The notes: a model not told the origin generated them from the letters alone. A DNA stretch of 64,000 nucleotides from Bilabrum cf. latius (GCA_965178125.1 OZ237754.1:806001-870000); one strand, 5' to 3'. Counted from the first letter of the stretch, positions 1,621 through 49,779 are shown. Program-made: numbers and translations.

Positions 1621-1863
1621 TGGCTCGTCAAGTCGGAATGGGCATTCAAACTGCAATTCGCGTGTAGCTCGCCGAATTTTCGCTAAGTGAGAACAGTAAT
1701 CACTCAGCAAAAAGTTCTTGAAACATTTAAACAAAAGGCTCGATGTGAGTGTATTGCAGATATCGTAAACGCGCGTGCGAGGTGGCGATGGAACCCCAAG
1801 TGGTTCCCAAGCGACGCCCAAAAAAGCGCCAAATTCGAGCTTTTTATCCTGGTTTTGAGCCAG

Positions 1864-5909: not shown

Positions 5910-6361
5910 TAAGCAGAGAAGCGAATAGACTGCTGCACAAACACGGCAGCAACGAGCAGGTACAGCTGCTCAGACTTCCCTGCGACGGCAAAAACGGACA
6001 GAACCACAGTTGGAAATAGTTTCCTGAGGCACTAAGAGACAGTAAACTAGCACATGAGTACGAAAATGTCATGGCTCTGCTGTGGCATAGCCAAGCACGG
6101 CAGATGGGGTGCGCAAGATTCTTCCGGTTCGGAAGTACAGTTGCGATGCGATGCTCAAGGAGCAATCGTGTGTTGCTCCCGATCCTTCGCTCTCGATTCA
6201 TTGTTTTGATCGTTACATCTGATGTGAATAATTTACTCACTGTGCTGTTGGGCTGTCCTTGTGGAGTTTTTGGCCAACGATCTCGTCGCGGCCAGGTTGC
6301 GTGCGATTTCACGGCGGCCGAAAATATTGCACCTGCGGCAACTCGACGCATAGACCTTGCT

Positions 6362-9300
6362 ATGAAGAGCGGCCGGCTAGATCTGCTCGATCTGAATGAA
6401 GGGGAGCATTACTTTGAGGAGTATGACGGGGAGTACTAGTACGTCTCCCGAACAGATGCTGAGGGCACCGTGCGACGAGGAGCGGATGCAGTAGCCGCGA
6501 GTGTCACGGAGCATGCGTACGAACCAGGAACGTTTCACGTAGCCTCCAAAGCCATTTACTTTGAACCCGAGTCTGCATACCTTCCAATCCTCCGATTCCG
6601 GTTCGCGGACATGCCAAGACCCCCTGCATCGGTCCTGCGGCTAAGCCAAGGCCCGTAGGCGGCGTTGGGCGAGCGCAAGTCGGCGCAGGCGGGATCCACT
6701 CTATTGTTTCAGGCGACACAAGCCACTCGGATCAAGCAAGACGGTCGCATTGGACCTCACTAGACTGTGGTGCTCGATAGCGGCCCGGACGCCGCGGGCT
6801 CGAGCCTGGGCAAGGACATTGCCGACGAGCCCGCGCTGGTGGAAGGGAGGGGAGTGGCCATCCTGAGGGCCGGGCACGCCGGACTCGATACCGACAAAGC
6901 AGCAAGACTAGAGGACCTGCTCCTGCTCTGCTTCCGCGCCGCGCACTGCCGTGCGCTGCACCGGCTGCAGGGTGCCTCTGGCCGGCCGCCCACGGAAGAC
7001 GAGTTGCTGGGTCCTCTGGTCCGGAGGCGGTGGGAGCTGCCTCCCCCTGGGTATGCGGGGGCAACGGGAGGTGGTGCGGCGGGTGCATCGCACGGTGGTG
7101 CTATCCTCGCGCCCGGTGAGCCCGGCGGGCCGTCATCCTTGTCATCTTCATCTTCAGGGATGGGCGCCCCGACCCTGTCGGCGGGGGAGTCCATGCTGCC
7201 CCAGGGCCCCTGGCCCGTGCTGCGGGCGCGTCCACTGGTGGACCAGGACTGCCGCTTGTTCCTCAGCGACAGGGCGCTGTACCTGAGGCCGTCCGCCGTG
7301 AACTGCCCCAGGGCGGGGGTCCCCGACCCGGTGCAGTCCATTGCGGTGGCGGCGGCGGCGGGAGAGACGGCGCTCCTTGGACCGGTGCCCCAGCTGGGTG
7401 CACTGCACGGTAGTGAAACCGGCGGGAGCGGGGCCCCGCTGGGCGCACCCTTGGGCGTACCGGGGTCGATCGGCACACCTGCAGGGTCGGGAAACCGGAA
7501 CCGTCACCGCGACCTCCGTGCTAGGCTGGATGACCCGGGTGCATCGCACGATGCCGTAAGGGCGGGGGAGCTGGCCGCGTTGGAGGGCGAGCGGGCGTCT
7601 TCTGGTGGTGCGGGCTCGGGGGCTATGGAAGCGGGGTCGGGGGGTGCGGGGGGCCAGTGGGGGGGGGCGAAGCTCCGTGTGGGGTGGGAGAACGTTCGCG
7701 TGCTTCGGCGGCGCACGCGCATGCGGAGGGACGTGGGTCTAGAGCTGGAGCTGCTGCCCAGCTCCAGGGGCGGCGCGGGATCCGGTGGGATGGGCACGGG
7801 CATGGGCATGGGCATGGTTGAAGGGACAGGTATGGAGCCGGGGGTAGGGTCTTTTGCAGCCACGGCCACGGGCACGGGCACGGGGACAGGGACCGGTGGT
7901 GGCAGTGGGTCGAACGGGCAAGGGGGAAGGCGCGGCCGGGAGGGGCTGAAGGAGATCGGCGGCGCCGCGGGAGGTTCCGCAGGGGAGTCCTCGTCACTGT
8001 CCAAAGGGGGGCGGCGGCGCCGTGGCAGCAGCCGCTACTCGGATTCGGAATCGGACGAGCCGACGGCCGCGGCACGGGCCGAGTAGCAGCTCCTGCGGAA
8101 CCCATGGCTCCTGCAGCCGCGCGGCGCCGCCGTCTTGCTCGTGTTCCGCAGCCGTGGGGAGCGGGAGCGCGCCTTGGCAGCGATCGCGGGGCAGTGCCCT
8201 GGCGTCTTGGTCGCGCCGGCGCGCCGGTCCGTGGCGGAGGCCCGCTGGCTCCGGGCCGCCCAGGGGGCCTGGCGGCAGGGTGCCCTGGGCACGTTCGAGT
8301 ACCTCGCGGTGCTCAACTCCGCGGCGGGTCGGTCGAGGTGCGACCTGCAGCAGTACCCCGTGTTCCCCTGGGTCATCCGGGACTACGAGAGCTACGAGCT
8401 GGACCTGGAGGCCGAGGGAGCCGCGTGGCTGCGTGACCTGGCGGTGCCCATCGGGGCCATGAACGAGGCGAGGCTGGGGAAGTTTCGGGAGAAGCTGGAG
8501 AGCCTGCGGGTGGACGGGGGTGTGACGAGTGAGGGGCCGGGGCACGGCGAGCAGCCGGGAGGAAGGAAGGAAGGCGCCGGGCCTGCCGGTCCTAGGGGCA
8601 GCCCCGCGCGGCCGGGCCCAGGGAACAAGAGTGGCAAGCCGCACCAGGAGCCCCTGCACAAGCACGGGCTCTACCGCTCGCACTACAGCAACCAGTCCTA
8701 CGTGATTTTCTACCTGGCCCGCGTAATGCCCGAGCACATGCTGCGGCTGCAGTCGGGCAGCTTCGACGCGCCCGACCGAATGTTCCGCGGGGTTCGCCAG
8801 GCCTGGGAGTCGGTGACGGGCACCAACGGGATGGACGTCAAGGAGCTGGTGCCCGAGTTCTACGAGCCTGGCACGGCGGGCCGGTTCCTCGTGAACTCCA
8901 GGGGGATCCGCTTCGGCGAGCTGTCGGACGGGAGCACCGTGGGGGACGCCGAGCTGCCCCCCTGGGCGCTCGACGCCTCTGATTTCGTGCTGCAGTGCCG
9001 CAGGGCGCTGGAGCACCCGGCGTGCTGCAGTACGATGCACCGATGGATCGACCTGGTGTTCGGGAGCCGGCAACGGGGCAGGGCCGCCGACCTCGCCGAC
9101 AACCTGTTCGAGCCGGACAGCTACGAGGGCGCCGTGGACCTGGACCGGATTTCTGATCCGATCCGCAGGGAACAAGCCAGGGCAGTGCTCGCGGAGCTGG
9201 GCCAGACGCCCTCTCAGCTGTTCCTCAGCGACCACCCCCATTGGGTGGGCCCCCAGATCGGGGGGGTCATAGGATAGCCGGATGCATCCGGTGCAGCGGG

Positions 9301-12300
9301 GGCGGGCGGGGATCAGGCGCTGGATGAGGCAGTGGCGGTGAATCGGAGCAGTGACGTCACTGCGGGCGGGCCGTCTAGCGGTGCAGGCGCCTCGGACGGT
9401 GCAGGCGATGCACCCGCGCCGCGGGCGGCGGACTCATTCCGAGCTGCATCCAATGCATATGATGCAACCGCTACGGCCGGCAGCACCGACCAGCGCACCG
9501 ACGGTCGCGAAGATGAAGATACGAAGGCTACCGAGGAACACATCATCGCCTGGAAGGAAGCACAGTCCCAGTCGTGGTCCGCCTCCAAGGCCGTGGAGGA
9601 TGCAGCCAGGTCGATCAAGCGGTCCGCACCGCAGCACGTGCTGCGGTTCCATCGACTCTGGGCCAGAAAGGTGCCCGACCCAGACGAGGAGATACGGGTG
9701 GACGAGGGTGTGACGAGTGAGGATGCCTCTCGAGAAGAGGCCTCGTCCTCTCCCGTGCCGATGGCCCAGACGGGTGGGATGGCAGGGGAAGGCGAGGGCC
9801 CTGGTGCTGGTGCTGGTGCTGGTGCTGGAGCAGGTGCGTCGGCGGGGTCTGGTTCCGGGCCCGACTCGCCTCGGCTGCTCCGGGGCTCCTCTGTGGGCAC
9901 CAGCGTCCGAAGCGGGTCTCCTGCGGTGTCCCAGGGAACAGCAAGGGAGGGAGAGGGGAGGCGGAAGGGGGGTGCCGCGTCCCCCAGCAAGCGGGGGTCA
10001 GCCAGGGGCCGTGACCCCGCAGAGGGGGTGCTCCGCAGGGACATCGAGGAGTCGGCAGGGGCGTGCGACGTGGTGGCGGCAGGGCCGGGGACGTGGCCGG
10101 GCACGGTGCGTCTGCACGGCGGTCCGGTGGAGGCGGTTTGCGCCTCGGAGCTGCAGCCGAGCCGGTGCGTTGTGACTCTGGGTGCTGACGGGCTGCACAG
10201 GCGGTGTGGGGTGGCCACTGCGGAACCTCTTGCTCTCGCCGCGGCGCCGTTCCGGGGGTATGATGAGGCTCTCATGCCTTCGGGGTCATCATCTTCATCT
10301 TCCAAAAAAGCTGCTGCGGGCAAGGGCAGAGACACAGCTGGAAGTGCTGCAATGCCGAAGCCTCTCGCGACCAAGACAGCTTCACAAGGCAAAGGCACAG
10401 ACAAAGGCGCCATCAGTACCATGGCCAGCTACCCCACTGCGGGGGCACCCCTCGGGGGTCAGGACTTCCTGCTGGCGGGGTCGAGCCGGGGGTCGGTGTG
10501 CCTCGTGCGGCTGGCGCGGGGCTCGCCTGTCAGCAGAGTGCAGATTGGGGCACACAAAGGCCGCGTGCTGTCGTGCGCTGCTCCCAGGACTGCGCTCCTG
10601 CGGCCCTCCGGAGAAGAGGACCAAGAGGCCCTGGCGGCTGGGTCGGGGTCGGGCAGGGGCGGCGGGAGAGGGGGCAAGGGAGCCGGTGAGCGTCTTCGGC
10701 GGATGTCGTCACTGAAGGCGGTTCGAAGGGCTGCCGAAGAAGCCGGAGCGAACGTTCTCTGCACGGCGGGGGCAGACGGGGACGTGTGTCTGTTCGCGGT
10801 GGGGGCCGCTGGCCAGGGGGGTGCGCCTGCCGCCGGGGAGCAGGAAGAGGAACTGGCCGGTGGGGTAGGTGCATTGCACGGGGGTGCAGGGGATGCATCG
10901 CTGCCGTCGCTGCATCTGCTTTGCAGGATAGAGGCCAGGGCAGTTCTGGCCGCGCTGGATCAGGTCGAGCAGGGGCAAGGGCAAGGGCAAGGACAAGGGC
11001 AAGGGCAAGGGCAATGGCAAGGGGGAGGGAAGGGACGGAGGGCGGGCGATTGGCCCCCCGCCGTGCCTGCTGGTCTCTCCTCAATCAGTGGAGCTGGACT
11101 TGAAGACGATGACCAAGAGGATGGCGGTGCCAGCGGTATCAAAGGCAAAGGGGTGGACCTATCCGCACTGCTGGGACCCACCACCTCCTCCTCCTCCGCG
11201 GCAAGCCCGCTCCGACCTCGCTAGTCCGGGGAGAAATCCAACGGCAGTAAGAAAGACGGCGTAAAGAAGAAGCTGGAGCTCGGCTCGGAATCGAATTCCA
11301 AGCGATCGAGGCCGAGTGCAACGCCAGTGCCAGTGCCCGCAACCGCCGTGGCCTTGTCCCAGGCAGCTGACCGGTTGGCCGTGGGCTTCGGGGACGGGTC
11401 TGTTCTGACCGTGCGTCTGCGTGCGGTGGGAAGCAAGGCAGGGGGAAAGAAGGGCAAAGGGAAGGGCAAGGGCAGCGGCAGCAGCACCCCAAGGACAGGT
11501 GCAGCCGGTGCAGGTGAGCTCAAGGCCTTCCGAGCTAGGAGTGGACGGGACCTGTGCGGCCTGGCGGACGGGATGCAGGTCGCGTGGGCTGCGGACGCAG
11601 CCAGGGAACAAGGGTCTGGAACAGCGCAGGTGCCGGTGGGTAGACCGGAGCTTGGTGGCCGCTCGGGGATCGTCTGGATGCAATGGGTGGAGCTGGAGAC
11701 ACAAGAAGGGGGCAGCACAGGGGAGGACGACGATGGTGGAGACGGGGGTGAGCGGGGTGCGGGTCTGCTGGACGCGGATGACAGCGTCTGGGACGGGTAC
11801 GGGGACGGGGGTGAGATGCCTGCGGGAGTAGGGGGTTCTGAGGTGGGTGCAGGGGGCAAGGGGGGACATGAAGAGGAGGAGGATGGGGGTGGTGGGACCT
11901 AGGGAACAAGCGGCGAGGGAGCCAAGGCGCGGCTGCTTGCTCTCTCCTCTAGCGGGGAGCTGGCTGTATATGACGCTGACGCTGTGTGCTTGGCCGTGTT
12001 CGCGCTGGGCCACCGGTGCACCTGCGCAGCGCTGGCACCGGGCGGGAGGGTGCTGCTCGCGGGCGGGGAACAAGGATCGCTGGCGGCGTACGATGCGTTT
12101 GCGGCCGTGCGGGCCGCGAATGGCGGCAGTCGTGGAGTGGGTCGCGATGGTTCGGCGCCGGGGACGACTGCGGCATTGGTTGCGCCGCCCGTGCTGCCGC
12201 TCGAGGTGCTGAGCCGAGCGCTGCGTCCGGGCCGCGAAGGTGTGACGAGTGCTTCTAATGGTGTGACGAGTGTTATTGATTATGGGGAGTTCAAAGAGGA

Positions 12301-12835
12301 CGAGAACGGCTCGGTAGACTCAGTGGATCAGGAGGGCGGTGAACATGGTGATGGTGATGGTCATGGTAATATCGGTCGTGGGATTGAAGTAGACAACGGG
12401 GGCGGTAAGGCTGAAAGGGATGGTGGCGCCGACCCAAATGCGGTTGTTGACAGTGCAGGCGCCGTGGCGGCCCAGGCAGACGCACTGCTGGCTTGGCTAG
12501 ACGCTCGGTCGGCCATTGGCCCAGTGCGAGCACGGGGCAACTGCTTGCTGCTCGGTCGCATGAGTGCGGTCGGGGGCGCGCCTGGGACCAGAGGGGTGCC
12601 AGGAAAGGGGACCAAAAAGGAATCAAAACAAGGATCAAAGAAGGATGCACTCAGGGGGGCCTAGAGGGATGCTTCAAGCAAGTCAGGTGGTGTTGCGAGC
12701 ACGGATGGAGACGAAGACGATGGAGCGAACACGCCCCCGGCCGTCCGCAGCGTGTTCGTCAGCTCGGACCAGCGGTTGGTGATCGCTGGGCTGGATGATG
12801 GGTGCGTTGGTCTGCTGTACAAGGAGTTCAAGTGA
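6362..12835 (+). CDS. NSMAF: FAN/NSMAF-like GRAM-BEACH-WD40 protein with large low-complexity inserts (~2157 aa)
   Basis: Single frame with TAG at 6437, 6656, 6761, 8084, 9275, 11222, 11900 and 12662, ending TGA at 12833. The N-terminus RLDLLDLNEGEHYFEE...GTFHVASKAIYFEP resembles FAN. BEACH motifs: FEYLAVLN, DLQQYPVFPWV, YRSHYS, DVKELVPEFY, WIDLVFG and LGQTPSQLF. C-terminal WD-like strands. Confidence 0.85.
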
Positions 12836-20061: not shown

Positions 20062-20280
20062 GCGCAAAGGCGAACAATTAACTCAACAGTGTCTGTCCAT
20101 TTGCGGACGCAGAAAGGACTCGGAGCTCCGAATCCACGCCGGCACGATCCAGACCAGCTCGACAACTTTGGTCCGAAAATTAAGATTCTCTTGCTTGCTT
20201 CGTTCGAAGTTGACACGTCGGCGATCTACGTAAAGACAACTTTTCACGTCTCCCAACTGTCAGGTCCAGCGTGGATCTCT

Positions 20281-33256: not shown

Positions 33257-33708
33257 CTACCCGCTCCTCATGGGCAGCAGAGCGTCAGCCCTGTAGCCCG
33301 CCGCTCCCCCCCCCCTACCGCTCCTCATGGGCAGCAGAGCGTCAGCCCTGCAGCCCGCCGCTCCCCCCCCCCTACCGCTCCTCATGGGCAGCAGAGCGTC
33401 AGCCCTGAAGCCCGCCGCTCCCCCCCCCCTACCGCTCCTCATGGGCAGCAGAGCGTCAGCCCTGTAGCCCGCCGCTCCCCCCCCCCTACCGCTCCTCATG
33501 GGCAGCAGAGCGTCAGCCCTGTAGCCCGCCGCTCCCCCCCCCCTACCGCTCCTCATGGGCAGCAGAGCGTCAGCCCTGTAGCCCGCCGCTCCCCCCCCCC
33601 TACCGCTCCTCATGGGCAGCAGAGCGTCAGCCCTGAAGCCCGCCGCTCCCCCCCCCCTACCGCTCCTCATGGGCAGCAGAGCGTCAGCCCTGTAGCCCGC
33701 CGCTCCCG
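33257..33708. repeat. 57-bp minisatellite, 8 copies; the unit contains the last codons and TGA of the adjacent minus-strand gene
   Basis: Unit CGCTCCTCATGGGCAGCAGAGCGTCAGCCCTGHAGCCCGCCGCTCCCCCCCCCCTAC, contiguous and without spacers. Confidence 0.92.
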
Positions 33709-36234
33709 CTCCCCAACCCGCTTGCGCTGCCAGCGCCAGTGCCAGTTCCCTGCACCGCAGTGCCGTTCGCCCCCGTCTCCTCGCCAGAGCTCGCGCCCGG
33801 CATCAGCCCCAGCCCCAGGTCCAGGCCGAGACCCATGCCCATGCCCGGAGGATCTGCCCCTTGCCCAATACCCTGGGGGAACAACGCACCTGCTCCCTCG
33901 TCTGGCTCGTCCAGGCCCCACCCCCACCCGCCCTGCTGCTGCTGCTGCTGCTGTTCCCCAGCGGCGCCGCCGGTGGCGCGTGGGGGCACGGTGGTCGTTG
34001 TGGTGGCTGTGCCGGAGCTGCTCACCGGGAGCAGGCCACGGTCCCCACTCGTCACACCGGCATCCACGCGAGCCTTCTTGCTGTCGGGCGGGAGCACGGC
34101 GCCCACCCCCGCCTCCTGCCCCTGCACCACAGTGCCCTGCACCGCGCCGCCGGCTAGCGCCGGGCCCCGGCTACGCTTGCGACCAGTCGTGACACCGAGC
34201 CCCCCTGCGATTGCGGAACCTCCGCTCTGCGCGGCGCCCCTGGAGAGCGCGATTCGTCGCGCCGCCGCCTGCTGCCTCCCCAGCACGCCCAGCGCGACCT
34301 CGTCGAAGCCGTCCACGGGCGACTGGTGGTGCGCGGCGCCGCCTCCGATTGCGGAACCTCCGTGGAGGCCCAGGTCGAGGGCGTTCTCCGCTGCCGAGGT
34401 CGCAACCGCCGCGGCCCTCTTCTCCTCGGTGGTGACCCGCGCCAGGTCCGGCATGGTCACCGCCCGGCGGGTAGGGTGCATCGGCACTGGCGCGGCGACA
34501 GGGACAGAGACAGAGGTGGAGGAGATGCCCTGCCTGCCAGGGGCATAGGCAGCTGTCGCAGCCACCGGGAGGGGGGGCGCATGTGGGGCGGCGGTGGGCA
34601 CGCCCGCTACAGCCTTCGAAGATGAAGATGAAGATGAAGATGAAGAGAGGGCGGCGGTGGGCACGCCCGCTACAGCCTTCGAAGATGAAGATGAAGATGA
34701 AGATGAAGAGAGGGCGGGGTGCTGTCTGGCGCTGGACTCGACCGAATCGACGGGCAGGGGCAGGGACAGGTCGTCTTGCGCGGCGCCGATCTAGGTTCCG
34801 CTGAGCTAAACCCCGTCGTCATTATCGCCGCCGCCAGGGCCCCCCCTGCTGCCGCTCCACTGCCCCAGTGCCGCAGCCCCATCCCCGCCCCTGCCCCTGC
34901 CAGCGCCCCTTCCCCTGCCCCTGCCACCAACGCCGACGAGGTTGGTTGGAGTCAGGCTCCCTTCGAGATCATGGTCGCTGATGAACCCCCCCCCTTCCCC
35001 TTCCATCTCTCCCTCTCCCTCCCCCTCTGGCCCGGTCCCTCCCAGCTCCAGGCTCCCCCGGCTGATGGCACCCCCCCTGTCCCCCCCCCTTGCTCCCCCG
35101 CTACCCCTTGACCCCCTGCCCCCGCCCCCAACGCCGAAGGGTCCCAGGTCACCCGCCTCCACCCTGTCCCATTCCTTCGGCCCGCTCCTGCTTGTTCTCT
35201 GCTTCAGCAGCTCGATCACGCTGTCGTTCTCAGAGTCGAGGCCGCTGTCGTCGTCATCATCCAACCCACCGCCGCCAGGGCCGCCAGCACCCAAGTGCCG
35301 GCTAGGCCCACCCTCGCTGCCCAGGCCACGACCCAGCCCCAGGCCAAGCGGCCCGCCTATGCCCCTACCCCTACCACTGCCCCTGAAGCGCCCGCCCAGC
35401 CCAAAGCCCAGCGGGTCGTCCCTGGCACGATCCTCACTCGTCACACCGAGCCCTCGGGACGACGACATGTCGTGAGGCAGGGAGGCGCTCCGGTGAAGCT
35501 TCCCGGCCGTCCTACCCCCCATCCCCACCCCCGCTCCCAACCCGCCGCCGACGCCGGACTCCCCGAGCGGCGGACCCATCGCACTCGTCACACCAAGGCC
35601 CCCCACTGGAGACAGGCCAGCCAGAGCCGAGGAGGGGAGCACCGCGTCGGCCGCCGCGCCGGTGTCCCGGTGCGGTGCGGGAGCGGGTGTGGCGGCAGAA
35701 GCGGCAGGCGCCACTCTGACCACCCTCTCCGACCGAGCAGAAGCCATGCCGAGGGTGTGATGCGACGCGGCGGTTTCTCCGCTCTTTCTCCGGAGGGTGC
35801 CACCGGACGGCCCCTGCCCCTGCCCCTGCCCATGCCCCTGGCCCTGCTGCACCCCACGACCATCACTCTCCGTACTCGGAGCGTCCATCTCATCCTGGTC
35901 CGCAGACACCCTGCGGCGGGTCTCAGACTGACTCCCGCCGGAGTGACCCCCGGCAGAGCGGCTCCAGCCGGTCCCGTGACTCGAGCTCGCAGGCAGCAGG
36001 GAGGAGGCATCCGAGGGACCCGCCTGCTGCCTGTGGCCGGGGCCCCTGCTGCTGCTGCGGCTGCTGCTGCCGCTGCCAGCAGGAGCCACCCCCTGCTGGC
36101 GCCGACGGTGGTGGTGGTGGCTCTGGTGATGGTCCTGCTACTGCTGCTGCTGCATGCCCAGGTGCGCCGCCGCGCCCAGCTGCACCGACCCGGGCCCGGA
36201 ACTGGTGCTGGCGGCACCACTATTCCCATGCCCG

Positions 36235-36305
<71 letters not shown>

Positions 36306-38225
36306 GGGTGCCTGCTGGGGAACAATCCGGGGGGTGGTCGCCGTCAGGAATGCCAGCACGTTGGGCTCCCTCCGCCCGCCCTGTTCCCCAGCGGTGCCTC
36401 CCCCTTGTTCCCCCGCTGTTCCCTGGCCAGATCCCAGGGCCTGTATGGCGGCCAGCGCGGCCTGCCCGGTGGACTAGGGCAGCGTGAACGACCGGCTGCT
36501 GCTGCCGTTGCGGCGCATCCCATGAGACTGTGACGAGTGCGACTATCCACCCATACCCATGCTTGTTCGCTGCTAAACGGACGCCTAGGAGGACGAATGG
36601 GGGCCAGAGACCGCGGCGGGGTTACGGGCACCCGAAGCAGTCTAGGCGCCCAGCTGGGATAGCCCGAGACCTACGGAGCCATGCGGCGCCGGGATACCAG
36701 CAGCTGCCTGCTGCTAATGATGCTATTGCTGCTGCATTGCATGGTGCTGCTGCTGATAGCCCCCTAGTCCCTAAGAGCCCATGGCCATAGTGGTCGACAT
36801 GCCACTACTGCCAATCCCAGCACCCAGCCCCGCTCCCATGCCCATGCCCATCCCATCCACCATCTAGATCCCCGCACCTATCCCTATCCCTGCCCCTGCC
36901 CCTGCCCCTGTCCCACCCCCCGAAGCAGTGGCTGCGGGCGCCTAGGAGCTCGTGCCCGTCCCCAGCCCGAACTCGTGCAGCCTCGCCGCCGCCTCCATGG
37001 CGGAGGACGAGGGGGCCGTGGAGCGGGACAGGGTGTAGTGCTGCTGGTGTGACGAGTGAGGGGTGTGTGACGACGGCATTGAAACCGAGCCCATCGGCGT
37101 ATGCGCGGCGCCGCCGGTGGTTCCGCTATGGGGCAGCTGCAGCTGCGACAGGCCAGAGGCAGGGGGAGCCAGCAGGCCGTGGTTCTGGTTTTGGTTAGGG
37201 TTCTATATCTGCGTGACAGCGGGCGATGATGCATGTGTTGCCGCTGCGTGCAACTGTAACTGCTGCTACTGCTACTGCAAAGGCTGCTGTTGCTACTACT
37301 GCTGTTGCTACTGTTGGCCACCCCCTCCCACCCACCCCCCCGTCGCCTGCATGCTGCTTCCCACCTCAAGGTCCCTCCCGTCCTCCCCAAGGAACGTCTG
37401 GCCGGGGGGTGCTTCCAGCCCCGCCCGGAAATGAGCCGAATGCGCACCCGCGCCTGTCTCGAGCAAGCGGAACCGGGCGCCGCGCATCGCATCGACGATG
37501 TTCCGCAGGACGCTGGCGCGCTCTCCCGACGCGCCCCCCGACTTTTCCACGTTCTTGGCGGCCTTGTTGGCCCTGGACACCGCGGTGATGACCCGCTTGG
37601 GGGGACCCGACGGCTGCTTGGCGAACACGCAGAACTGTCTGGTTGCAACCACCTCTCTGTCGGCGAGCATGAAGGCGAGCATGAAGGGCCTGTTCGCGTG
37701 CACGGAGGAGATGGGCAGGCTCTTGGGCAGGATGCTGACGTGGAGCACGCCCTGCTGTGACGAGTAGCAGGGCACGGCGGAGGGGAGGGGCACGGGGTGG
37801 GCTTCCCCAACGGACTGGTCCTCGTCACTGGAGGTGAGGAACACAGTGGGCACCGTGCCGTCGTAGTACAGCACGTCGGTCCTGACCAGCCTCGCCAGGT
37901 CCATGGGGTCGATGTCCCCCCCGGACTCGAAGGAGTTGGGGCTGGGCTCGGGGGGCAGGGGGAGGCCGTCGAGGCCAGTTGTGGGCTCTGTTAAGGAGTT
38001 GGGGGGCCAGGCAGCGGGGGGCGACTTGGAGGAGCCCTTGCCGCCGCCGCCGCGCCCGCCCCGGCGCCTGCCGGTGCCTGCGACAGCAGGGGCGGGCGTG
38101 ATGGCGGGCCGCATGGCCGGAGAGGCCCCGCTGCGTGTCGGGCGCGCTTCACGCGTTGCTGTGTCGAATGCGGCCTTTGTAGCCGCTCCTAGTCGCAGCT
38201 GCGATGCTAAAATGGGTGCAACCAT
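33684..38225 (-). CDS. Large Gln/Gly/His-rich protein with one compact N-terminal domain; putative transcription factor (start uncertain)
   Basis: One frame through about 18 TAGs, many inside poly-Q tracts, ending TGA at 33684. Compact beta-rich segment LPISSVHANRPFMLAF...TRQFCVFAK near 37600-37900. Confidence 0.72.
34587..34717. repeat. 63-bp in-frame tandem duplication containing (GAAGAT)n
   Basis: GCGGTGGGCACGCCCGCTACAGCCTTCGAAGATGAAGAT... occurs twice. Confidence 0.85.
36225..36305. repeat. (CCCATG)n hexamer repeat encoding (GH)n on the minus strand
   Basis: About 13 units. Confidence 0.9.
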
Positions 38226-38894
38226 GTGTATGACGGTGCTGCAGCAACCAGTGGCTCGCTGAGCGATCTCGACGCCCTGCGCGTGGCATAATTCGGCCTC
38301 CGGCCAGTCTCAAGCCCAAGCAATTACATCAGGGCTACACAAAACGGAGCCAGCATCACTTCGAGGCGGCTACTGAGTCTCATTGACCAAACTCGCTCCC
38401 GTGCCGGCAGGCCAGTCGATGGATGTAAGCTAGTTGGTGGCAAACTGTCAATAATTACCCAATTGGTTATCATTAGAACATATGCGGCGCAGTTCGTGCC
38501 GTTGCAATATCGACACAGCTTCATGCCGAGGCTGAATATCTGGAAACATCAGTTGCAGTGGTGGCTGCAGCCCGCATCCTCACCGATATTGTCATGCGCG
38601 TGCGGCTATCGAGCCTTCCGTGCTCGTCACGTCGAGAGTTATATACAATGTTTGGCGGACCCCGGACTACCAACGACTCTTGGGGCTCCATAGCCCCGCA
38701 AAATCGGGGAGAAGATACGTCCCGCTTTTCAGCGACGCAGCGGCTGCGTCATGTAAAGCACACCTTTCAAAATCTGAATTGTGCAATCCGTACTCGACTC
38801 GTTTCGATGCCCTGAACCGGACAGCAAAGCTTTAGCGAATACTACAGTCTGTATTCACTGGGTTGAACTATCCCACCGCAAAGGATTGCTTTGC

Positions 38895-41210
38895 ATGGCA
38901 GCGTCTGCGTCGCACCCGGAGGGCCCCGGCGCACCAACGGCAACTGCAACGGCCACGAGCAAGAAATCTGGCCACGGTACTGACAAGTAGCCCACATCGC
39001 GCCACGAGGAAACCTCAGGTGTACCTGATGCCTTCCTACAGACGTGGAGGGACCCATTCCTGGAGCTGGCCGCCCAGTCGAGCTGCGTGGACTCATTGGA
39101 CGCGAATTTGGCCGATGAGGCGCAGCTCGTGCTCGCCTGCCAGGATGGTAAGCTTCGCGTGATCGAGAACACGAGAGTCGTCGCTGAACGAAACCTGATC
39201 GGCGCACCGTGCGGGCTAGTGTGCCTCCGACCCAAGCGAGGCGAGCGGCAGGTGGTGGCGGTCGCGAGCGGGACTTACATGTTCGTCTACAGGAACTTCA
39301 AGCCGTATTTCAAGTTCAAGCTGCCGGAAACAGCTGTTGATGCGGAAGAAAAAGAAATCTGGGCGAACCTAATGGGTCTCGATCCCAGGCTGGCAGCCTC
39401 CCACGGGGGAGCGCCCCCCCCGGGCGAGGGGTTTGCGCACCCGCCACATCCAGGCCCGGAGCCGGCTGCGGGGTCTGGCACAAGCACGCTCTCTGGCGGC
39501 AGCAGCAGCAAGAGCAGCATTGGCATCGCCGGCGAGAAAGAGGAGGGCAGGCACTCGCCCGCCTGGGTGCTCGCCCGCAGCGTGGAGCAGCTGAGGAGCC
39601 TTAGGCACAGGGGGGGGCAGCTCACCTTCGACTCGGCAGATTTAATCCTGAAAGTAGACGGCGAAGATGGATCCGGAGCCGTAGAGCAGGTGCTCCGCAG
39701 GGCCTAGGCGACCGGGCGGGTGCTCCGCGCGACGGTTGTAACCGTCGTCTCCAAGCTGGGGCACCGCCTGCCGCTCGCCGAGGACCCCGAGGGTGTGACG
39801 AGTGCAATCCTAGGCACGGAGGGCCGCGCGGTGCTCGCCCTGGAGCCGGACTGCACCCGGATTGCCTTCGCCATCGGTGTTCCCTCGGTGCCGGTGGCGA
39901 TCAGCGGGACGGGCTGCCTCTCCTCGGACCACCGGATCGCCTTTACAGGGCGGGACGGGAAGATCCGATTTATTCGAAACCGCACGCTATCCGCGGACAC
40001 GATCGAGCCTGCGCTCCCCGCCACGGACGTGCTCCTCACCGAGACGCACACGGTGGTTGCAACCGCTGGCAAGGAGGTGCTCTTCTACGGCAGCCGGGGC
40101 AAGCGGCTCCTGTTCCAGCACACCCTGCCGGCCCACGCGGTGGCGCTGCGGCCCCTCCCTGGGCCCCGCTGCGAAGGTTCGTACGGTTCGCTGGTGGTGG
40201 TTGCGCTCCGAGACGGGTCCGTGCTGGTGCTGGACGGCCCACAGGTGGTGAGCGAATCCAGAGGGCCGGGGAGGGGGCGCGTGGTGGGTGCATTCGTGGG
40301 GGCCTTCGGCCGGGAAGAGTGCGCCGTGTGTTCCCTGGGACAGGCTGACGGCTTCGTGGTCAGAACGCTGCGGAGGAGGGCGAGACTCTCGGCCCAGGGA
40401 ACAATGGGCGGGCCTGGGACGGGGCTGCCCGGGGGTCCAGCAAGCGCGGTTGTGGGAGGGGGGGGCGGGAGCAGCGGGGCTGCGGCAGGTTTGACCACCC
40501 CCTCGCACAAGCGACTGACCCCCGCCGAAATCGACACCCCGTTGCCCCTGCCCAAGCGCACCCGCGCCTTCCTGGAGGTGGCAGAGCGGGAGCTGGCCGA
40601 CCCAGGGGCCGTGCACGTCGCCTTCCAGCGGGGGCTGGCCAGGACCAAGCTGGCCGTTGCGAGGGCGTTCGTGGAGCACGTGGCCAGGGGGGTGGAGGGG
40701 GCCGGCGGCTCCCCCGCGGGGGCGGGAGCAGCCGAGGCGAGCCGGAGGGGGGTGGCGCTGCGGGCCTAGGCGGACGGGATGGGCCCGCATTTTAGGCTCC
40801 GAGTCGAAGCGTCTTCGTCAGCGGTCGCGGTGACGGGAGCGACCCTCGTGGTGCAGCCCATTGCAGCGCGGTCCTATGCCGTGCGACCCTCTAGCGTATC
40901 GCTGCAGTGCATTGCACCCGGGGCGCCAGCTGCAGTGGACGTGTCCGTCGACTGGGTAGGGGGCGAGTCCCCGCCCTCGCTGCATGGGAACGAAGATGGT
41001 CTGGGGTCGGGAGGTGGAGGGTGGGCGGGCGGTGCAGGTGCAGGTGCAGGCAATGGTGTAGGGTCAGGGTCAGGGTCAGGTGGGCTAGGCGGGGTTGGCG
41101 GGGTTGCCAATGGCCGCACGATTCGGGTGTCCCTGGTGCATCCAGGCTCCACTCAGCCTCTGGTCCAGCTGCGTGTGGTGCTGCCCGAGGCAGAGCTAGA
41201 GGAGGCGTGA
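38895..41210 (+). CDS. BBS1: BBSome subunit BBS1 (~771 aa)
   Basis: One frame with TAG at 38988, 39705 and 40767, ending TGA at 41208. Motifs VAVASGTYMFVYRNFKPYFKFKLP, ILGTE, GAFGREE, LPKRTRAF...ERE and LRA*ADGMGPHFRL. Confidence 0.9.
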
Positions 41211-42911: not shown

Positions 42912-45900
42912 ATGGAGAGTGACATCCCAGTCCCCGATTTGTTCTCGCCTGCGACTATTTTAACCCCATACCGGATCTATGAATCGAAATGCAGCTATTG
43001 CTACGGGCCAGGCAAAGGAAGAAGCGCGTGAGTGCAACCGCCACGTTTCATAGAGCAGAACAGCCCCTTCTTGATGCTGCACACGAAGTTATAGCCAGCT
43101 ACGATATACTTACATGTTTGATCACAGGTATGGAGCATCGGCCGAAAGACTAACCGTGGATGACTACGATTTCTTGCTGGATCGCGGCTGGATGAGGAGC
43201 GGAGACTTTCTGTATCACCCATACAACCAGCGGGCGTGCTGCCCAAACCTGGTGATTCGGCTTGACATTCGACGATTCATGTACGACAAGCAGCACGAGA
43301 AGGCCCTCCGTCGCCTGCACGAAATGCTGCGGGGTGACCGGCCAATCATTCACGACTGGACAGCGATTCCGAGGCCAGAGGCACTGCGCCACAAGAAGCT
43401 CGCGCTAATCCACGAACGGTGGCGAAGAGATAACAATTGGGAGCCTCCAAGCACAACCACGGAGGAAGTGCTTCGCCGCCGCCGCGAATCCGGGCGAGCA
43501 CCCAAGTGCGCTTTGGACTGGCTCGAGGCGAGCAAGAACGATCGGACGGCAGCGGGCGAAGAGGCCCAGCGCAGTGATTAGGCGCTGCATCTGCCTAGCA
43601 GCGCAAGCGAATCATCCGATGAAGCCCGCAGGAGGGCGGGAAGTCTCCTCCTCGCCGCTCTGGCAGCCGAGTGGATCACGGAGACGAAGCAGGAAAGCAA
43701 GCAGGAGAGCGAGCACGGTGGAGGGGCACTTGCTCCGCTGGCGCAGGAAGCCATGGACCGGCTGGTCGCACTTGGGATCGATGCGGGGGTCCTGCGGTCT
43801 GCGGGGTGTGACGAGTGCGTCTGGACCGCGGCTGGGCTGTTGCTGCGAGGCTCCACCGAGCTCCGAGCTGCTTCTGGCCTAAAGGCGAAGGCAGGAGGCG
43901 CTCGGGGCGCTGTCGCTGGGGCCGAGTCTGGGGCTGGGCCTGGGGTGGGGTCTGGAGAGGAGCAGGCCTCGAAGCGGCGCCGCACGGAAGCCCGCGGCAG
44001 TTTTGATTCCGGTTCCGGTTCCGCAGCGGCGCCGCGCGACTGTGGGTGGGAGGGCACTTCGACGGTCGCCCACGCTCTCGGGAACGACCCGCTGCTCGGG
44101 TTTCGTGGCGAGGAGCCCGAGGGCGAAAAAGGGGCAGCCAAGCAGAAGAAGAAAGGAAAAGGCAAGGGTAAGAAAGCGAAAGGAGGAAAGAAGGGCCCGA
44201 ATCCGGCCGTGGAGCGGGTGGCAGCTGGCCTGGCTACCGCATCGGTGGGCCAGTCGGACAAGCAGGCCGCCGCACTTGCGACCACCGTGAAGCAGCTGCT
44301 CGGGCTCCTGTCCCTCGCCCGACGCGAGAAGGAGAAGTAGAAGGAGGAACAGCGAGCAATCGAGGGTCGGGGCCCTGAGGCAGCTGCTGTGTCTTCCTCT
44401 GTCGTTTCCTCTGCTCCTGGTGGCAGCCGCGCGACTGGAGCCGGCGCGATGACCCGATCGCACGAAGACGAAGAACAAGAACACGGACACAAACAAGAAC
44501 AAGAACAAGAAGGTGGGCCAGTCGGGATCATGGGGGTCACTGCGCGAAGGGGCGGCATCCTGGCGGTGCGAACGGGTGCACTGCACGATGGTACCGCGGG
44601 GGGGGCCAGCGAGCGTGAGCTGCAGGAAGGGTGGCGGGCGGCGGCGGCGCTGCGGGCCGCGTGGGTGCAGCGCACGAAGGCGCTCGCCAAGGCAAAAGCA
44701 GAGGAGGAGAAGCGATCGAGGGAACGCAGCAAGCAGCCGGGCAGCAGCAAGAACATGGAAGGAGAAGGTCAGGGAGGAGGAAAACGCTCGAGCGGCCCCT
44801 CCCCCTCGCCGCCCAGCAGCGGGCCCGCTGGGGGAGGTGTGACGAGTGAGGCCATGCCACGACCACTCGGCCGCCATGGCCCCGCGCTGCCCCCAGACTG
44901 GGAGGAGCGGGCAGCGTCAGAGGCCGGGCGCGCGGCACTGGAGGCAGGTGCAGGCGGCGCGGAAGAGGGCGAGGCTTAGGCGGTAGCAAAACCAAGTCCA
45001 GGCTCAGGGTCAGGTGCAATGCACGGCGGTTCCAGCGCTGCATTCCAGGGAACAATGGGTGGCGAGGACCCCGCCAGCACCCCTCCCAGTTAGCACCACC
45101 ACGCAATGCACCAGCGCCCCGTGCCGGCCTCGGAGCTGGCGGGCCCCCCCCTGGCGCGGAGCCAGCACCCTGACCTAGACGAGAGAGAGAACCAATGCAT
45201 GAAAGGCAGGGAGCTCCTGGGCGGCAAAACCGCCAAGGAGAGGGAGGATCTGGCCCGGGAGCTCGAGACGGAGCTCATGGGTTTCGAGGACAGGTGGGTG
45301 CAGGAGGTGAGGTACAGGTACACGAGGTCGGAGCAGGGGATGCTGCCGGGGGCGCGCCTCAAGATCGCCGACATCCAGGGTGTGACGAGTGAGTTGCCGG
45401 AGGCCTCCGGTGCGGTTGTGGCGCTTGGGGCGGCGGCTGCTGCAGGAGAGCAGTCTGAGCTGTGGGTGGCGGGGGAGGCTGCACAGGCTGCTTCTGCTTC
45501 CGGTGCTGGTGCAGGTGCAGGTGCAGGTGCAGGTGCAGGTGCAGGTGCAGGTGCAGGTGCTGCTTCAGGGGCAGGGGTAGGTGCAGGTGCAGGTGCTGCT
45601 TCAGGTGCAGGTGCAGGTGCAGGTGCAGGTGCAGGTGCAGGTGCAGGTGCAGGTGCAGGTGCAGGTGCAGGTGCAGGTGCAGGTGCAGGTGCAGGTGCAG
45701 GTGCAGGTGCAGGTGCAGGTGCAGGTGCAGGTGCAGGTGCAGGTGCAGGTGCAGGTGCAGGTGCAGGTGCAGGTGCAGGTGCAGGTGCAGGTGCAAGGGC
45801 ATTAGCGAAGGGTCAAAGGCAAGGGTCGAGCGGTGCAGCAAAGGCCGGGCAAGCACCGATGGAGTCAGATGCATTGCATGCAGGTGCGACCGAAGGGCAG

Positions 45901-48900
45901 CATGATACACCGCAGCTTGGACGTGCGGCCGGCCTGCAGCCCGAAGAGCCGCTACGGCTGAACGTGTCCTTGCATCGGCCCCGGTACACCCCGGTGCACC
46001 ACGACCTCTACTTCCGGTTTAATACGGAGATCCACGGGAGCGCCCCCGGGGACAGCACGGCCGCGGACTACCTGAGGCACCTGATGGGGTCACCCCTGGT
46101 GCGGGAGGGGGGTCGGGTGCTGCCCCCCGACCGGCTGCCCTGCAGGCAGGAGCACAAGGAGGATCTAGCCGCTGCACTGGGGCAATTCCAGGCATCGCAG
46201 GCGCAGCAGCGCAGGGAACAACGCGATCGTGCGATGCAGTTGCGGCGGGAGCGCTGGGAGTGGGTGAGGAAGCAGGAGGAGGAGGGGTACAGGGCGAGGG
46301 TCGAGTCGGCGCGCAGGGCCCGTGAGGCGCTGGAGAACACGCGCAGGGAACAACGAGAGGCGCAGGCGGAGCTGCGGCGGGAAGAGGAGGCGGGGGATGC
46401 GCTGCAGCAACGGATTCGAGGTGGAGATTCTGGGTCTGGGTCGGGGTCTGAGTCGGCGCAGGCGGCTGGGTCTGGGTCTGGGTCTGGCGCTGGGTCGGGG
46501 TCTGGGTCTGGGTCGGGTGCGGGGTCTGTATCTGGCAGCAGCATGCTTGATGGGCTGCTTGACGGGCTGTTCGGGTCTCGGAGCGGCAGTGGTGCTGGTG
46601 CTGGTGCTGGTGCTGGTTCCCGGGAACAAGGAGAAGACGCTGACGGCCGGAGCCCTGAAGAGCTGGCGGCACTGCTGCAAGAGGCAGCGGGCAGGCTGCG
46701 CCGTGCCCGGGCGCGGGCGGACAGCGCGGCAAGGCGAACAGAGCAGGCGGCGCAACTGAGCGAGGTGGCCGAGCGCGCCGTGCGGATGCCTCCGCCAGAG
46801 GAACTGCCCTCTGCCGAAGAGTACAGCGAGGCCCTGGACCTCTGCGTCAGCGAGGTGGGGCAGGCCGCGGGGCTGGACCCCGGCATGGTGGAGCATTTGT
46901 TCCTCAGGGCGGTGGGGCAGGGAAGGACGCCTTGGCTGCTGCCAACGCCGCGGGAAATCCTGAGACTGCCGGCGAGGACGACGAGGACGGTGGCGGACGC
47001 CTCCGCGAGAGTTCTCCGGATCAATCGCGGAAAGTTCCTGGAAAGGCACGTGCAGAACGCCAGGCCCCCGGCGCTGGCCCGGTTCGCTGCGCACCACGGG
47101 ATCGCCGTTGGCGGTGTGACGAGCGAAGAAGCTCCATCTTCATCTTCATTTTCGTCGGACCTCGGGTCGACGGTCGCCGAGCGAGCCGCCACGGCCGTGC
47201 TGCTGCAGGGCGGCGAGGAGGAGGACGCCGAGCGTGCGCGGCTTTGGGGACCCGGAGCCGCAATGGACGCCGCCTACGCCGCGAGGAAAGGGGCCCCCGG
47301 GGGCTGGGCGGGGTTCTCTCCCGAACGTTCGCCGGGACTGGGGCTGCTGGAGAAGTATTTCGGCGGTCCCGGGGACTGCCTCGACGAGGACAGCGACGAG
47401 GACGAGGACGAGGACGAGGATGAAAATGAAGGTGACGGTGGCGGTGCTGCTGCTGCGGCCGGGATGCGGGGTGGGGGTCGTAAAGCGGACTCCGCCCAAG
47501 GAACAGTGCGTCGGACTCGCGCACCGGGTGCATCGCACGGTGGTGCATCCGGCCCCAAGTCGGTGATGGGCCTGGGGCCAGCCGACGTGGAGGGCTGGGA
47601 CGTCCGGATGGGCTACGGTCCGTTCTTTCAGGAATACAGGGTGGGAGACCGGCTGGTAGCATTCACGCTCCTGGACGTGCTTCCCACTCGCGTTTGTAGC
47701 GTGTACTTTGTGTGGGACCCCGACCTCCGGGGGATGCAGCTGGGGACGGTGTCCGGACTGCGTGAGCTGGCGTTCATCTGGCGGATGTCCGCATTCTCGC
47801 CTGCCCTGCGGCACCTGGACCTGAATTTCTACGTGCCTTCGTGCTCCAAGATGAACTACAAGCGGCAGTGGCGCAGCCAGGACCTCATGTGTCCCGAGAC
47901 CAACCGATTCGTGGACATGGAGGCGGGGCTGCATCGCATTGCAGCGACGCAGGGGACCCAGTACACGCTCGCCGATGAGAAGGGGGACCCGCTCCCGTGG
48001 GAGCCGCCAGGGTACAAGGCCTGGCTTGAGGCGCGAGGGAACAGCGGGGGCGAGGGAACAGCGGGGGAGGGAGAGGCCGCGGGCGCAGAGGGCCCCAGGT
48101 CCGGTGCCGGCGCGGGCCTAGGGTGTGACGAGTGCGACGGGGCTCACGGCGACCCGCGCGAGCACTCGTCACACGTGAAGCTGGCCGGGTTTGAGGACCT
48201 TCTGGAGGCCCAGCGAACGTTCCGTGCCTCCAGGGCGGAGGATGCCGCGGCACTGCCTGACGCTGGTGGTGTGGGCGATGGAGAGGGAGAGGGAGAGGGA
48301 GAGGGTACGAGGGGTCCTGGGTCGGGGGACCTGGTGGAGCGGGAGGCACTGCGGTCAGTGTGGCTGGGTTTGATGGGGAGGGCGGTGTGGCTGGGGAGCC
48401 TGGAGGGGGCCTTCCGCACGCGGGACGCAGCCGCCACCAGCCTGCTGCAGCCGAGGCTGCCCCGCCTGCCCCCGGATGCGACCCCGCAGGACGAAGCGAT
48501 GCTTGAGACGCTGCGGCAGCAGCACCTGCAGCTGATCCGAGTGGCCGCGGGGTCGGATTTCTCGCTCCGAGTCCTCGCCCGCCGGGGCCGGCTGGTGCTC
48601 CACCCCTCTTCCGGAGGGGAAGGAGCAGCCGCTGTCGCCTCCTATATGGGGGGCATCAGTCCACCGTGCGCGGTTGCAATACGAGGGGCTAGCGAGACCT
48701 CCCTGAGGCAAGCCCTTGAAGCGCACAGGGTGTGGCACGACAAGGGGAGCGCCCCTTTGTCCGGGCCTGGATCCGAGGTCACCGAGAGGGTGGCCAAACA
48801 GACAAGCAGAGACGTCATCGTGCGCGTGCCGGAGGTGCAAGAGTACGAGCCCAAGCCCGGTCCCGTGCCCTACACGGCCGTGGACCGTGCCGCCTTGCAG

Positions 48901-49779
48901 GCCCTCTGGGAGATTGCACCTCACGGGTTAGCCACGCCCGAGCGGCTGGAGGTCGCTGCGGCCAGGGCCGTCATGCAGCTGAGGCAGGCCAGGGGGGAGC
49001 AAGGCAGCCCAGGGAACAAGGGATCGGAGCAGGCCGCGGGGGCCGCCGCCGCGCCTGCCGCTGCCAAGCTCGATTTCAGCCCCTCAGACGCGTTCGACAG
49101 CACCCCCCCGCCCGTCCCAGGCCTGACGGATATCCTCAGCTCCAGTTTCGCTCGCCAGCGGTTGTTCTTTGCCCCCGAATGGAGGCCGGCGTGGGTTCCG
49201 AACCCGGGCCCCTCCCACCGTCGCCTTGCGAGCAGGCCCGACCAGTACCTCCTGCACTGCGAGGTGAATTCCCTGGCGAGGCAGAAGATGGAGCTGACCA
49301 CGCCCGAGTACGTGCGGTGGATGGGCCCCGAGACGGCCGTGACCGCCGTGCACGAGCCCAGGGTGCTGCTGTACTTTGGCGGCAAGAAGCTGCGGGAGCT
49401 GGAGGAGAAGAGGGAGCTGCAGATGAAGAAGGAGAGGGAGGCGCAGGAGAGGCTGATGAGGGAGCAGATGGAGGCCATGGGGATGACAGGGGGGCCTGCT
49501 GGAGGCGCAGAGGGGCAAGGAGGCGGTGGTTCCGGTGGGGGCTTGCCACCGGGGGCGTTGCCAGGGTTTCCGGCTGCCTTTGCTGGCTTTGGTATGCCCG
49601 GAAGTCCCGGCGGCTTTGGCTTTGGCGGGCCTGGCGGCAGCAACGGAGGTGGAAGCGATATGGGGGCGGAAGAAGCTATGCTGCAGGCCATTTTACAGCA
49701 GTCGAAACGGGAGTACGAGGCCGCCATGGCGGCATCCAAGTCGGAGCAAGGAGGTGGCGCAAGTGGCGGCAGTGATTGA
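42912..49779 (+). CDS. ATE1: Arginyl-tRNA--protein transferase ATE1, greatly expanded (~2255 aa); intron 43028-43127
   Basis: Exon 1 encodes CSYC. Exon 2 has DYDFLLDRGWMRSG...CCPNLVIRL (ATE_N), then GYGPFFQEY...LDVLPTRVCSVYFVWDPD...LGTVSGLRE...FYVPSCSKMNYK...DLMCP (ATE_C). TAG at 43579, 44338, 44977 and 45091; TGA stop. Confidence 0.88.
45502..45795 (+). repeat. (GGTGCA)n microsatellite encoding poly-(Gly-Ala) within ATE1
   Basis: More than 40 hexamer units with two short interruptions. Confidence 0.95.

Follow-up and report, generated by a model that had tools for sequence, protein, structure and literature searches.

In-frame TAG codons of a probable bicosoecid flagellate as very probable glutamine codons, with a putative decoding tRNA resembling tRNA-Tyr

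Does the triplet TAG stand for glutamine in a tract where it alternates with CAA and CAG, or is it an ordinary stop codon in a stretch that is actually read in another frame? This question is raised by a locus in the window (the whole analysed stretch of 64,000 nucleotides, C20:806001-870000 of genome G000, a near chromosome-level assembly of 48.57 Mb in 111 contigs). Positions 37316-37260 of its minus strand (37260..37316 in plus numbering) carry 19 codons, CAA CAG TAG CAA CAG CAG TAG TAG CAA CAG CAG CCT TTG CAG TAG CAG TAG CAG CAG, and five of them are TAG (37310, 37298, 37295, 37274, 37268). This run, quoted in a preliminary description of the DNA, is present exactly as given there and lies in a long single ORF on the minus strand (33684..38225) encoding 1513 amino acids from the first ATG at 38225, with 19 in-frame TAG and a TGA end; for translation with table 15, ATG codons at 38225, 38114 and 37904 are the candidate starts. 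Two further motifs assigned to the same gene were found in the same frame, namely a second, Gln/His-rich stretch at 36737-36708 with two TAG (36725, 36716) and a third Gln run at 36152-36135 with one (36140-36138). If TAG is taken as sense, the frame common to all three stretches runs from 38309 to the TGA at 33684 (1541 codons), and the ORF contains 82 CAG, 8 CAA and 19 TAG. The TAG codons are clustered, since 5 of 19 fall inside the 19-codon tract (hypergeometric 1.7e-6 for a stretch picked post hoc), and a Gln-type codon is the neighbour of 9 of 19, such codons making up 7% of the ORF.

The preliminary description regarded this tract as homology-independent evidence that TAG is synonymous with CAR. 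The conclusion was correct, but the tract alone is ambiguous: in the neighbouring minus frame it reads AGT/AGC/AAC (SSNSSSSNSSLCSSSSSS), that is Ser/Asn, and on the plus strand CTA/CTG/TTG, that is poly-Leu, both stop-free under the standard code. With TAG as a stop the tract might thus be poly-Ser, poly-Leu or intronic, and poly-Ser is common here (19 of 71 homopolymer tracts). Over the whole ORF such a reading, to which we assign a practically negligible probability, meets 11 and 19 TAA/TGA in the two alternative frames and codon log-odds of −218 and −34, against +166 in the frame of the tract. None of the five other frames does better, as each contains from 11 to 19 internal TAA/TGA (the tract frame has none) and their summed scores, obtained with a model trained on other contigs, range from −34 to −323. 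The 300-nt bin that holds the tract scores about zero (−0.03) even in the chosen frame, so that the choice of frame rests on the flanks of the ORF and on stop counts.

The predicted protein is low-complexity, rich in Gln/Gly/His/Ser, and its only globular-looking part (37554..37904, minus strand) has no Pfam match. Neither a Pfam family nor a homolog at E<=0.01 among longer proteins was found for the protein as a whole, and its single-sequence AlphaFold model has a pLDDT of 39. Protein-language-model leads for 37554..37904 (DG1062_N, 0.89; LAG1, 0.84; NDT80/PhoG, 0.77; all under 0.9) give a weak indication of DG1062_N or of DNA-binding domains with an immunoglobulin fold. From these model-based leads one may guess, but rather doubtfully, at a transcription factor whose Gln-rich tracts serve in activation, and the interest of this gene is that of a marker of the genetic code. 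Contigs of four sequencing runs are identical to the window, with 0 other letters and 0 gaps, at 36315-41205 (X4), 36315-36866 (X5), 37019-37293 (X6) and 36931-37234 (X7). Run X4 may be the same sample from which the window was assembled, and X5 is probably a DNA run. Runs X5–X7 bear the labels of two other organisms, yet contain window DNA at 100% identity, which suggests that the flagellate rides along in other cultures.

Beyond this locus, homopolymer tracts were tabulated in 69 coding-like ORFs of a random sample (504 kb from five contigs). The idea that TAG favours Gln tracts held there to a modest degree: internal TAG was present in 4 of 8 Gln tracts and in 3 of 63 others (Fisher p = 0.002), but one of these three is a Glu tract. 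Neighbour preferences across the sample give a weak signal, Gln being next to TAG in 7.0% of cases and next to GAA in 6.1%, with a background of 4.3%. As to CAG/TAG polymorphism, no Gln-codon difference was observed among four 99%-identical copies of a transposon, and the matching run contigs contained no variant letters.

Decisive evidence came from homology, in dyneins, small GTPases and eRF1, and it upheld the proposed equivalence of TAG and CAR. For dyneins, 10 kb were taken from each of 19 loci, and 20 ORFs were aligned to the best 40 of 270 homologs. These loci comprise 62,836 codons with 273 in-frame TAG and no internal TAA (394 CAA); TGA is zero by construction, one locus (L062) was cut at its terminal TAA, and some columns are common to paralogs. 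At least 15 homologs cover 185 of the 273 TAG. In the 25 TAG columns conserved to at least 90% the consensus was Q in 19, E in 4, R in 1 and V in 1, and control codons in columns of the same class gave Q for 259 of 320 CAG and 30 of 35 CAA, Y for 322 of 353 TAC and E for 457 of 501 GAG. Thus 6 of 25 highly conserved TAG columns have a non-Gln consensus, a rate similar to that of CAG (p = 0.6). The homolog profile at the 185 TAG columns correlates at 0.99 with those of CAA and CAG and at 0.50 with that of GAA, and the log-likelihood favours Q (+74) over the next best residue, E (−100). In the Cafeteria ortholog of dynein L064 the residue is Q at 7 of 12 TAG sites.

In small GTPases the switch-II glutamine (DxxGQ) is encoded by TAG in 8 of the 21 loci where it was readable, and this genome also uses TAG for Q44 of eRF1, a residue conserved as Q in 89 of 94 homologs. 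Dynein columns, the GTPase glutamine and eRF1 Q44 also bear out the opinion that TAG is not Glu, Leu or Tyr, and on these sequence comparisons all three readings are rejected. The standard code cannot account for 273 TAG in dynein motor domains or for TAG at the catalytic Gln of GTPases; for the genome as a whole it is already refuted.

The fate of UAA, which the preliminary description left unaddressed, was followed at gene ends. Homology or motifs fixed 27 of them, with TGA in 22, TAA in 5 and TAG in none: C-termini matching homolog ends in 7 dyneins are followed by TGA in 6 cases and by TAA in 1, and 20 of 30 GTPase loci have a terminal prenylation-type Cys motif with TGA next to it in 16 and TAA in 4. 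The eRF1 gene, additional to these 27, ends in TAA. Of the 69 coding-like ORFs 62 end in TGA and 7 in TAA, and past either triplet the coding score sinks to −0.13, whereas beyond 316 internal TAG it holds at +0.096. Thus, UAA remains a stop. Since conserved Gln positions, gene ends and sample statistics agree, the nuclear code would very likely be NCBI table 15, with UAG as Gln, UAA and UGA as stops and UGA as the main one.

Table 6, in which both UAA and UAG mean Gln, is the commonest nuclear variant according to the available text of PMC5304391 and PMC11687900, and under it TAA would be rare merely through GC-richness. The ORF cores of the 504-kb sample (72,212 codons) do contain 4 TAA besides 412 TAG. 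But GC-richness would hardly remove every internal TAA from 62,836 dynein codons that retain 394 CAA, nor place TAA immediately behind the conserved C-termini of a dynein and of eRF1 and behind four GTPase Cys motifs; coding score collapses past TAA, and no tRNA with UUA anticodon appeared in scans of an incomplete inventory. We therefore consider table 6 highly improbable.

Somewhat less improbable, but still far from likely, is that UAG is context-dependent or leaky, meaning Gln inside genes and a stop near their 3′ ends or a part-time stop. Unchanged T32, E55 and Y125 in eRF1 would fit this, as would the single tRNA-CUA gene found, the GlnRS gene without TAG in its 839 codons, the avoidance of TAG in high-GC3 genes and the occurrence of TAG at most 7 codons before TGA in three ORFs. 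Yet TAG closes 0 of the 27 defined ends and is not depleted in the last 30 codons, where its share among Gln codons is 0.099, compared with 0.103 beyond 300; and in GTPase L277 read-through of a late TAG gives the terminal Cys motif. With 48 TAG in one dynein stretch, termination at even a small rate would carry a high cost; a low residual rate would still be compatible with the DNA.

Within these limits of table 15, TAG behaves like a non-preferred synonymous codon: it makes up 10% of Gln codons, is present in 77 of 89 ORFs, and its use declines as GC3 rises (rho −0.80, 61 ORFs). We regard the tract, as confidently as the code itself, as a normal poly-Gln stretch that uses TAG as a minor synonym among its Gln codons. 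As a separate observation, the switch-II Gln of GTPases (L249–L278) is TAG in 38% of cases (8/21), compared with 10% for Gln codons overall (binomial p 0.0006); lower GC3 or the preceding GGC/GGA context is perhaps responsible.

Other genes of the window are written in the same manner. Eleven long ORFs contain 65 in-frame TAG in total, and the limits of ten of them do not change when TAA is also set to sense. Plus-strand examples are a BEACH-domain ORF (5660..12835) with 9 in-frame TAG, where the PH_FAN match (residues 238-369) spans TAG codons; the BBS1 ORF (38778..41210) with 3, one of them within the GAE domain match; the arginyl-tRNA-protein transferase ORF (43075..49779) with 4 TAG between ATE_N and ATE_C; and a DDE_1 transposase ORF (1687..3807) with 5, two within the DDE match. 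With five TAG in its transposase, this DDE element follows the code of its host. The same transposon (1687-3807; L058–L060) has four genome copies at 99% identity, and 24 bases of the window copy are absent from the other three. The BEACH (5660-12835) and ATE1 (43075-49779) proteins are inflated by long Gly/Ala/Ser-rich insertions, a GVTS-encoding motif is repeated across several window ORFs, and the minus-strand ORF at 15880-20082 has a weak PP2A B56-like region (residues 363-515) fused to a protein kinase domain. Elsewhere (L099, G000:C6:899000-908999) ORFs of 968 and 1074 codons carry 11 and 9 TAG in a stretch that is probably a mobile element; a 29-base motif in it has about 7 occurrences genome-wide. 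One more dispersed repeat occurs at G000:C2:1623410 and in about 30 other places, two copies being 99% identical over 233 bases.

To which organism does this genome belong? The best plausible named hits are those of Cafeteria roenbergensis, with dynein identity of 82% in AAA1 and 65-67% across the motor domain, and eRF1 identity of 68% in the C-half. The top dynein hit (P0001), which bears a sturgeon label, 77% coverage and the mark unverified, was set aside for placement. Identities of 65-67% in dynein and 68% in eRF1 indicate a relative of C. roenbergensis and not that species. In the eRF1 tree (33 rows, i.e. 32 of 120 hits and the gene itself) it groups with Cafeteria and environmental sequences at only 91/83 support, and one relative (P0271) is 88% identical. 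An 18S gene of 1700 nt on contig C12 looks, as we presume, bicosoecid, and contig C111 is the mitochondrion, with TGA=Trp. Comparison of 18S with plasmid sequences yielded nothing of use for placement. On this comparative basis the nuclear genome would probably be that of a Cafeteria-related bicosoecid stramenopile. One eRF1, which carries the label Symbiodinium sp. KB8 (P0278), stands in the tree near Cafeteria among environmental sequences, and its label is likely that of a contaminant. A second, different 18S gene (1802 nt; L034, L097) at G000:C95:6099-7900, on a 17.9-kb contig rich in simple repeats, is presumably dinoflagellate-like and probably derives from a contaminant or a co-cultured cell. 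The tandem rDNA array at G000:C12:950271-1029808 consists of ~9.5-kb units, and the unit near 969369-970785 is fragmented.

Reassignment of UAG should leave traces in the release factor. The eRF1 gene was modelled in four exons, with GT-AG borders picked by homology and a predicted protein of 440 amino acids, and its N domain contains two in-frame TAG, at human positions 44 and 69. Efficient termination at UAG would therefore make the full product of this mRNA impossible. In comparison with 95 homologs of at least 395 amino acids, several substitutions are rare or absent among them: N30D (0/87), K130H (0/95), S60V (1/93), G29A (2/87), N129S (4/95) and L69Q (6/95). Residues T32, E55, S70, Y125 and F131 are unchanged and the GTS motif is intact. 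L69Q and N129S occur together also in three related environmental eRF1s, and Q69 is found in a plant eRF1 too (8ip8). In the accessible part of PMC4381064, E55, Y125 and N129 are proposed as readers of guanine in the third base, and L69A was slightly stronger on UAG and N30A, in yeast, without effect. N129S and L69Q are thus plausible causes of altered UAG recognition as far as residue comparison goes, and one can assume that eRF1 has lost most of it through changes near the third-base pocket, N30D, S60V, L69Q, N129S and K130H being the candidates; the loss as such appears quite likely. Public eRF1 pieces of this lineage come without the TAG-bearing N domain, an absence for which introns would also account. 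A scan of metagenome contigs for eRF1 gave 79 loci, none above 73% identity.

A decoding tRNA is the other expected participant. One gene with CUA anticodon was found by Rfam and ARAGORN at G000:C23:907607-907679 on the minus strand; it is the second-best of 48 Rfam hits, its MFE structure is a cloverleaf, and DNA search showed it to be single-copy. Downstream of it there is a T-run, and upstream a TTTGTATAT motif common to Tyr and Gln(CTG) genes. Pattern scans with 4- and 5-nt variable loops, which intron-bearing genes would escape, revealed neither a UUA-anticodon tRNA nor a second one with CUA, and the inventory is incomplete, with 63 of 780 Rfam candidates scored. One scan gave 65 hits. 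Closer inspection of 13 singletons, together with 3 loci that represent two repeat families, yielded no tRNA; the rest were judged from the match. Another CUA candidate (L243) folds poorly and was flagged as a possible pseudogene. A 9-mer D-loop pattern produced background matches only, and a 22-mer of the tRNA-CUA was absent from viral contigs.

In its stems this tRNA is closest to tRNA-Tyr(GUA). Acceptor and anticodon stems are identical at 20 of 24 positions (12/14 and 8/10, respectively), whereas 338 control pairs of unlike isotype gave a mean of 8.7/24 (sd 3.0) with a maximum of 16, and the two tRNA-Gln gave 12/24 and 6/24; the choice of these stems was made after the data had been seen. 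Over the whole molecule the identity is 41/60 with Tyr, 36/60 with Gln(CUG) and 33/60 with Gln(UUG), and 41/60 is not exceptional, being reached by 9 of the 338 unrelated pairs. The comparison involved 27 other nuclear tRNAs; genes for Leu, Asp, His, Glu(UUC) and most Ser tRNAs were not found and are hence absent from it, and eight rows (duplicates, one false call, long-arm Ser) as well as mitochondrial tRNAs were left out. Among these 28 nuclear tRNAs C1:G72 is confined to tRNA-Tyr and tRNA-CUA, and the variable loop of tRNA-CUA has 5 nt, as in tRNA-Tyr. Its D-stem (8/8), A37 and G73 match tRNA-Gln(UUG).

The Tyr-like features (C1:G72, 20/24 in the stems, the 5-nt loop) make it necessary to consider that UAG is partly or wholly Tyr, i.e. 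that tRNA-CUA is an amber suppressor derived from tRNA-Tyr and still charged by TyrRS. Some Tyr charging is possible because C1:G72 is kept; the section of PMC9976931 available lists it, together with A73, among eukaryotic Tyr identity elements, A73 having this role in all domains. But in tRNA-CUA A73 is replaced by G, Tyr is the consensus at 0 of 25 TAG columns conserved to at least 90% and at 0 of 47 among those listed at 70% or more, and it makes up 2 of 175 best-hit residues at TAG compared with 662 of 1020 at TAC. A Tyr reading is therefore very improbable, only slightly less so than table 6. With UAG as Gln, decoding by tRNA-CUA seems quite likely, C34 barring the reading of UAA, and, a little less surely, cytosolic GlnRS would charge it via U35 and an acceptor end that TyrRS refuses owing to G73 and C34. 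One GlnRS gene and one GluRS gene were found, the former being the TAG-free gene of 839 codons. A precedent is known from E. coli, where su+3 tRNA-Tyr with A73G is an amber suppressor charged by GlnRS.

How did this tRNA arise? With a slight preference we suppose that it descends at least partly from tRNA-Tyr(GUA) by G34C, A73G and acquisition of a Gln-like D-arm, and not from tRNA-Gln(CUG); for capture of a tRNA-Tyr copy by GlnRS as a whole the chances, judged from sequence, are about even. The opposite view of this step alone, which is only moderately less credible, derives tRNA-CUA from tRNA-Gln, as predicted by Panek et al., with the likeness to Tyr due to convergence or gene conversion, or leaves decoding to a second, Gln-derived tRNA-CUA. 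The match of D-stem, A37 and G73 to tRNA-Gln(UUG) speaks for it, as do the nine unrelated pairs that reach 41/60, the post hoc stem test and fast drift of tRNAs. It has to face the 20/24 identity of the stems with Tyr (control mean 8.7; 12/24 and 6/24 for the Gln tRNAs), the failure of patterns with 4- and 5-nt variable loops to reveal a second CUA tRNA, and the poor fold of L243.

Other tRNA genes are unusual too. The two Gln isoacceptors (L013, L041) have discriminators G73 and U73, Gln(CUG) has an A4:A69 mismatch, and the two are only 33/60 alike, which therefore implies fast tRNA drift here. Multi-copy AT-rich tRNA-Met(CAT) genes (L025, L037, L040, L046–L048) have nearly the same acceptor stem and D-arm as a tRNA-Pro(TGG) that sits 250 bases from one of them; possibly the isotype was switched here too, or the genes belong to a mobile element. 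Nuclear tRNA-Ile with GAT anticodon is encoded by two genes (L011, L043), and the usual anticodon of eukaryotic tRNA-Ile is AAT.

Tentatively, and with less than even confidence, these data may reflect the first nuclear code change in a stramenopile, brought about by an identity switch in which a duplicate of tRNA-Tyr obtained the CUA anticodon, lost A73, acquired a D-arm of Gln type and became a substrate of GlnRS. If this is true, UAG was for a time read as Tyr or as a mixture of Tyr and Gln, the amino acid gained by a stop codon can differ from that of the parent tRNA, the pull of GlnRS on tRNAs with U35 could help to explain why Gln is the usual outcome, and two UAG in the gene of eRF1 itself lock the change in. 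Reassignments of UAG only are rare and test the rule of joint evolution of UAA and UAG; UAG=Gln with UAA as stop has so far been described in a few ciliates and one gut flagellate. For these Gln cases, in the text available, the data are transcriptomes or incomplete assemblies that did not reveal the tRNA, and here code, tRNA, GlnRS and eRF1 can be seen together in one near chromosome-level genome that has standard-code relatives (Cafeteria, by annotation). In practice, most genes would be truncated by annotation under the standard code.

No nuclear code change in stramenopiles was found in the literature searched, which included few subscription journals and no supplements; the accessible portions of a Halocafeteria genome preprint (10.64898/2026.06.25.734631) and of a stramenopile review (PMC11412368) do not mention UAG or a nuclear code change, PMC13524828 concerns, as far as its available part goes, giant viruses, and PMC6723347 is a paper on the mitochondrial genome of Cafileria (Bicosoecida). 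It is conceivable, though less likely than not, that the makers of the assembly have already noted the code.

The codon table as such is already known; what sets this genome apart from the cases in the literature available is its lineage, termination mostly by UGA, a GTS motif that is intact and a tRNA resembling that for Tyr. Iotanema spirale (Fornicata) has the same table with UAR codons uncoupled (available text of PMC5304391 and PMC9161772), but belongs to a different supergroup, so its code is of independent origin. The former source gives UAG=Gln for Iotanema and UAG=Leu for exLh with the tRNAs not known, and the latter confines the change to Iotanema and ties it to eRF1 T32G, whereas GTS is intact here; the main stop of Iotanema is UAA and not UGA, and its tRNA was predicted to come from tRNA-Gln(CUG), in contrast to the Tyr-like tRNA-CUA described above. 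The ciliates Hartmannula sinica, Trochilia petrani and Protocruzia tuzeti share the table and the widespread use of UAG as sense, and no dual meaning is reported in the accessible text of PMC11687900. According to the same text UAA ends 86.9-98.3% of genes in five recoded phyllopharyngeans; here it closes 5 of the 27 defined ends and 7 of the 69 ORFs. Since our genome is GC-rich and UGA-terminated, the argument that UAA was kept because nearly all genes end in it is inapplicable. A suppressor tRNA is described there as not detected in H. sinica or T. petrani, and one was found here.

Reassignment of UAG only, there to Leu and here to Gln, links the rhizarian exLh and phyllopharyngean TARA MAGs with our case (parts available of PMC5304391 and PMC11687900). 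Position 69 of eRF1 is altered in exLh as L69A and here as L69Q (PMC5304391, same part), and in UAG=Leu ciliates tRNA-CUA derives from the cognate tRNA-Leu (PMC11687900, same part). For non-Gln tRNA bodies with U35 captured by GlnRS the likeness is with E. coli amber suppressors: section 17 of PMC9976931, in its accessible form, describes charging of amber derivatives of tRNA-Trp, -fMet and -Ser by E. coli GlnRS via U35, acceptor stem and discriminator. These are laboratory mutants and a bacterial enzyme. Oligohymenophorea sp. PL0344, as presented in the available text of PMC10553269, also has uncoupled UAR codons and tRNA-CUA, but there both are sense (UAA=Lys, UAG=Glu) and each of the ten tRNA-CUA is most similar to the cognate tRNA-Glu, while the single tRNA-CUA of this flagellate is nearest to a tRNA of non-cognate isotype.
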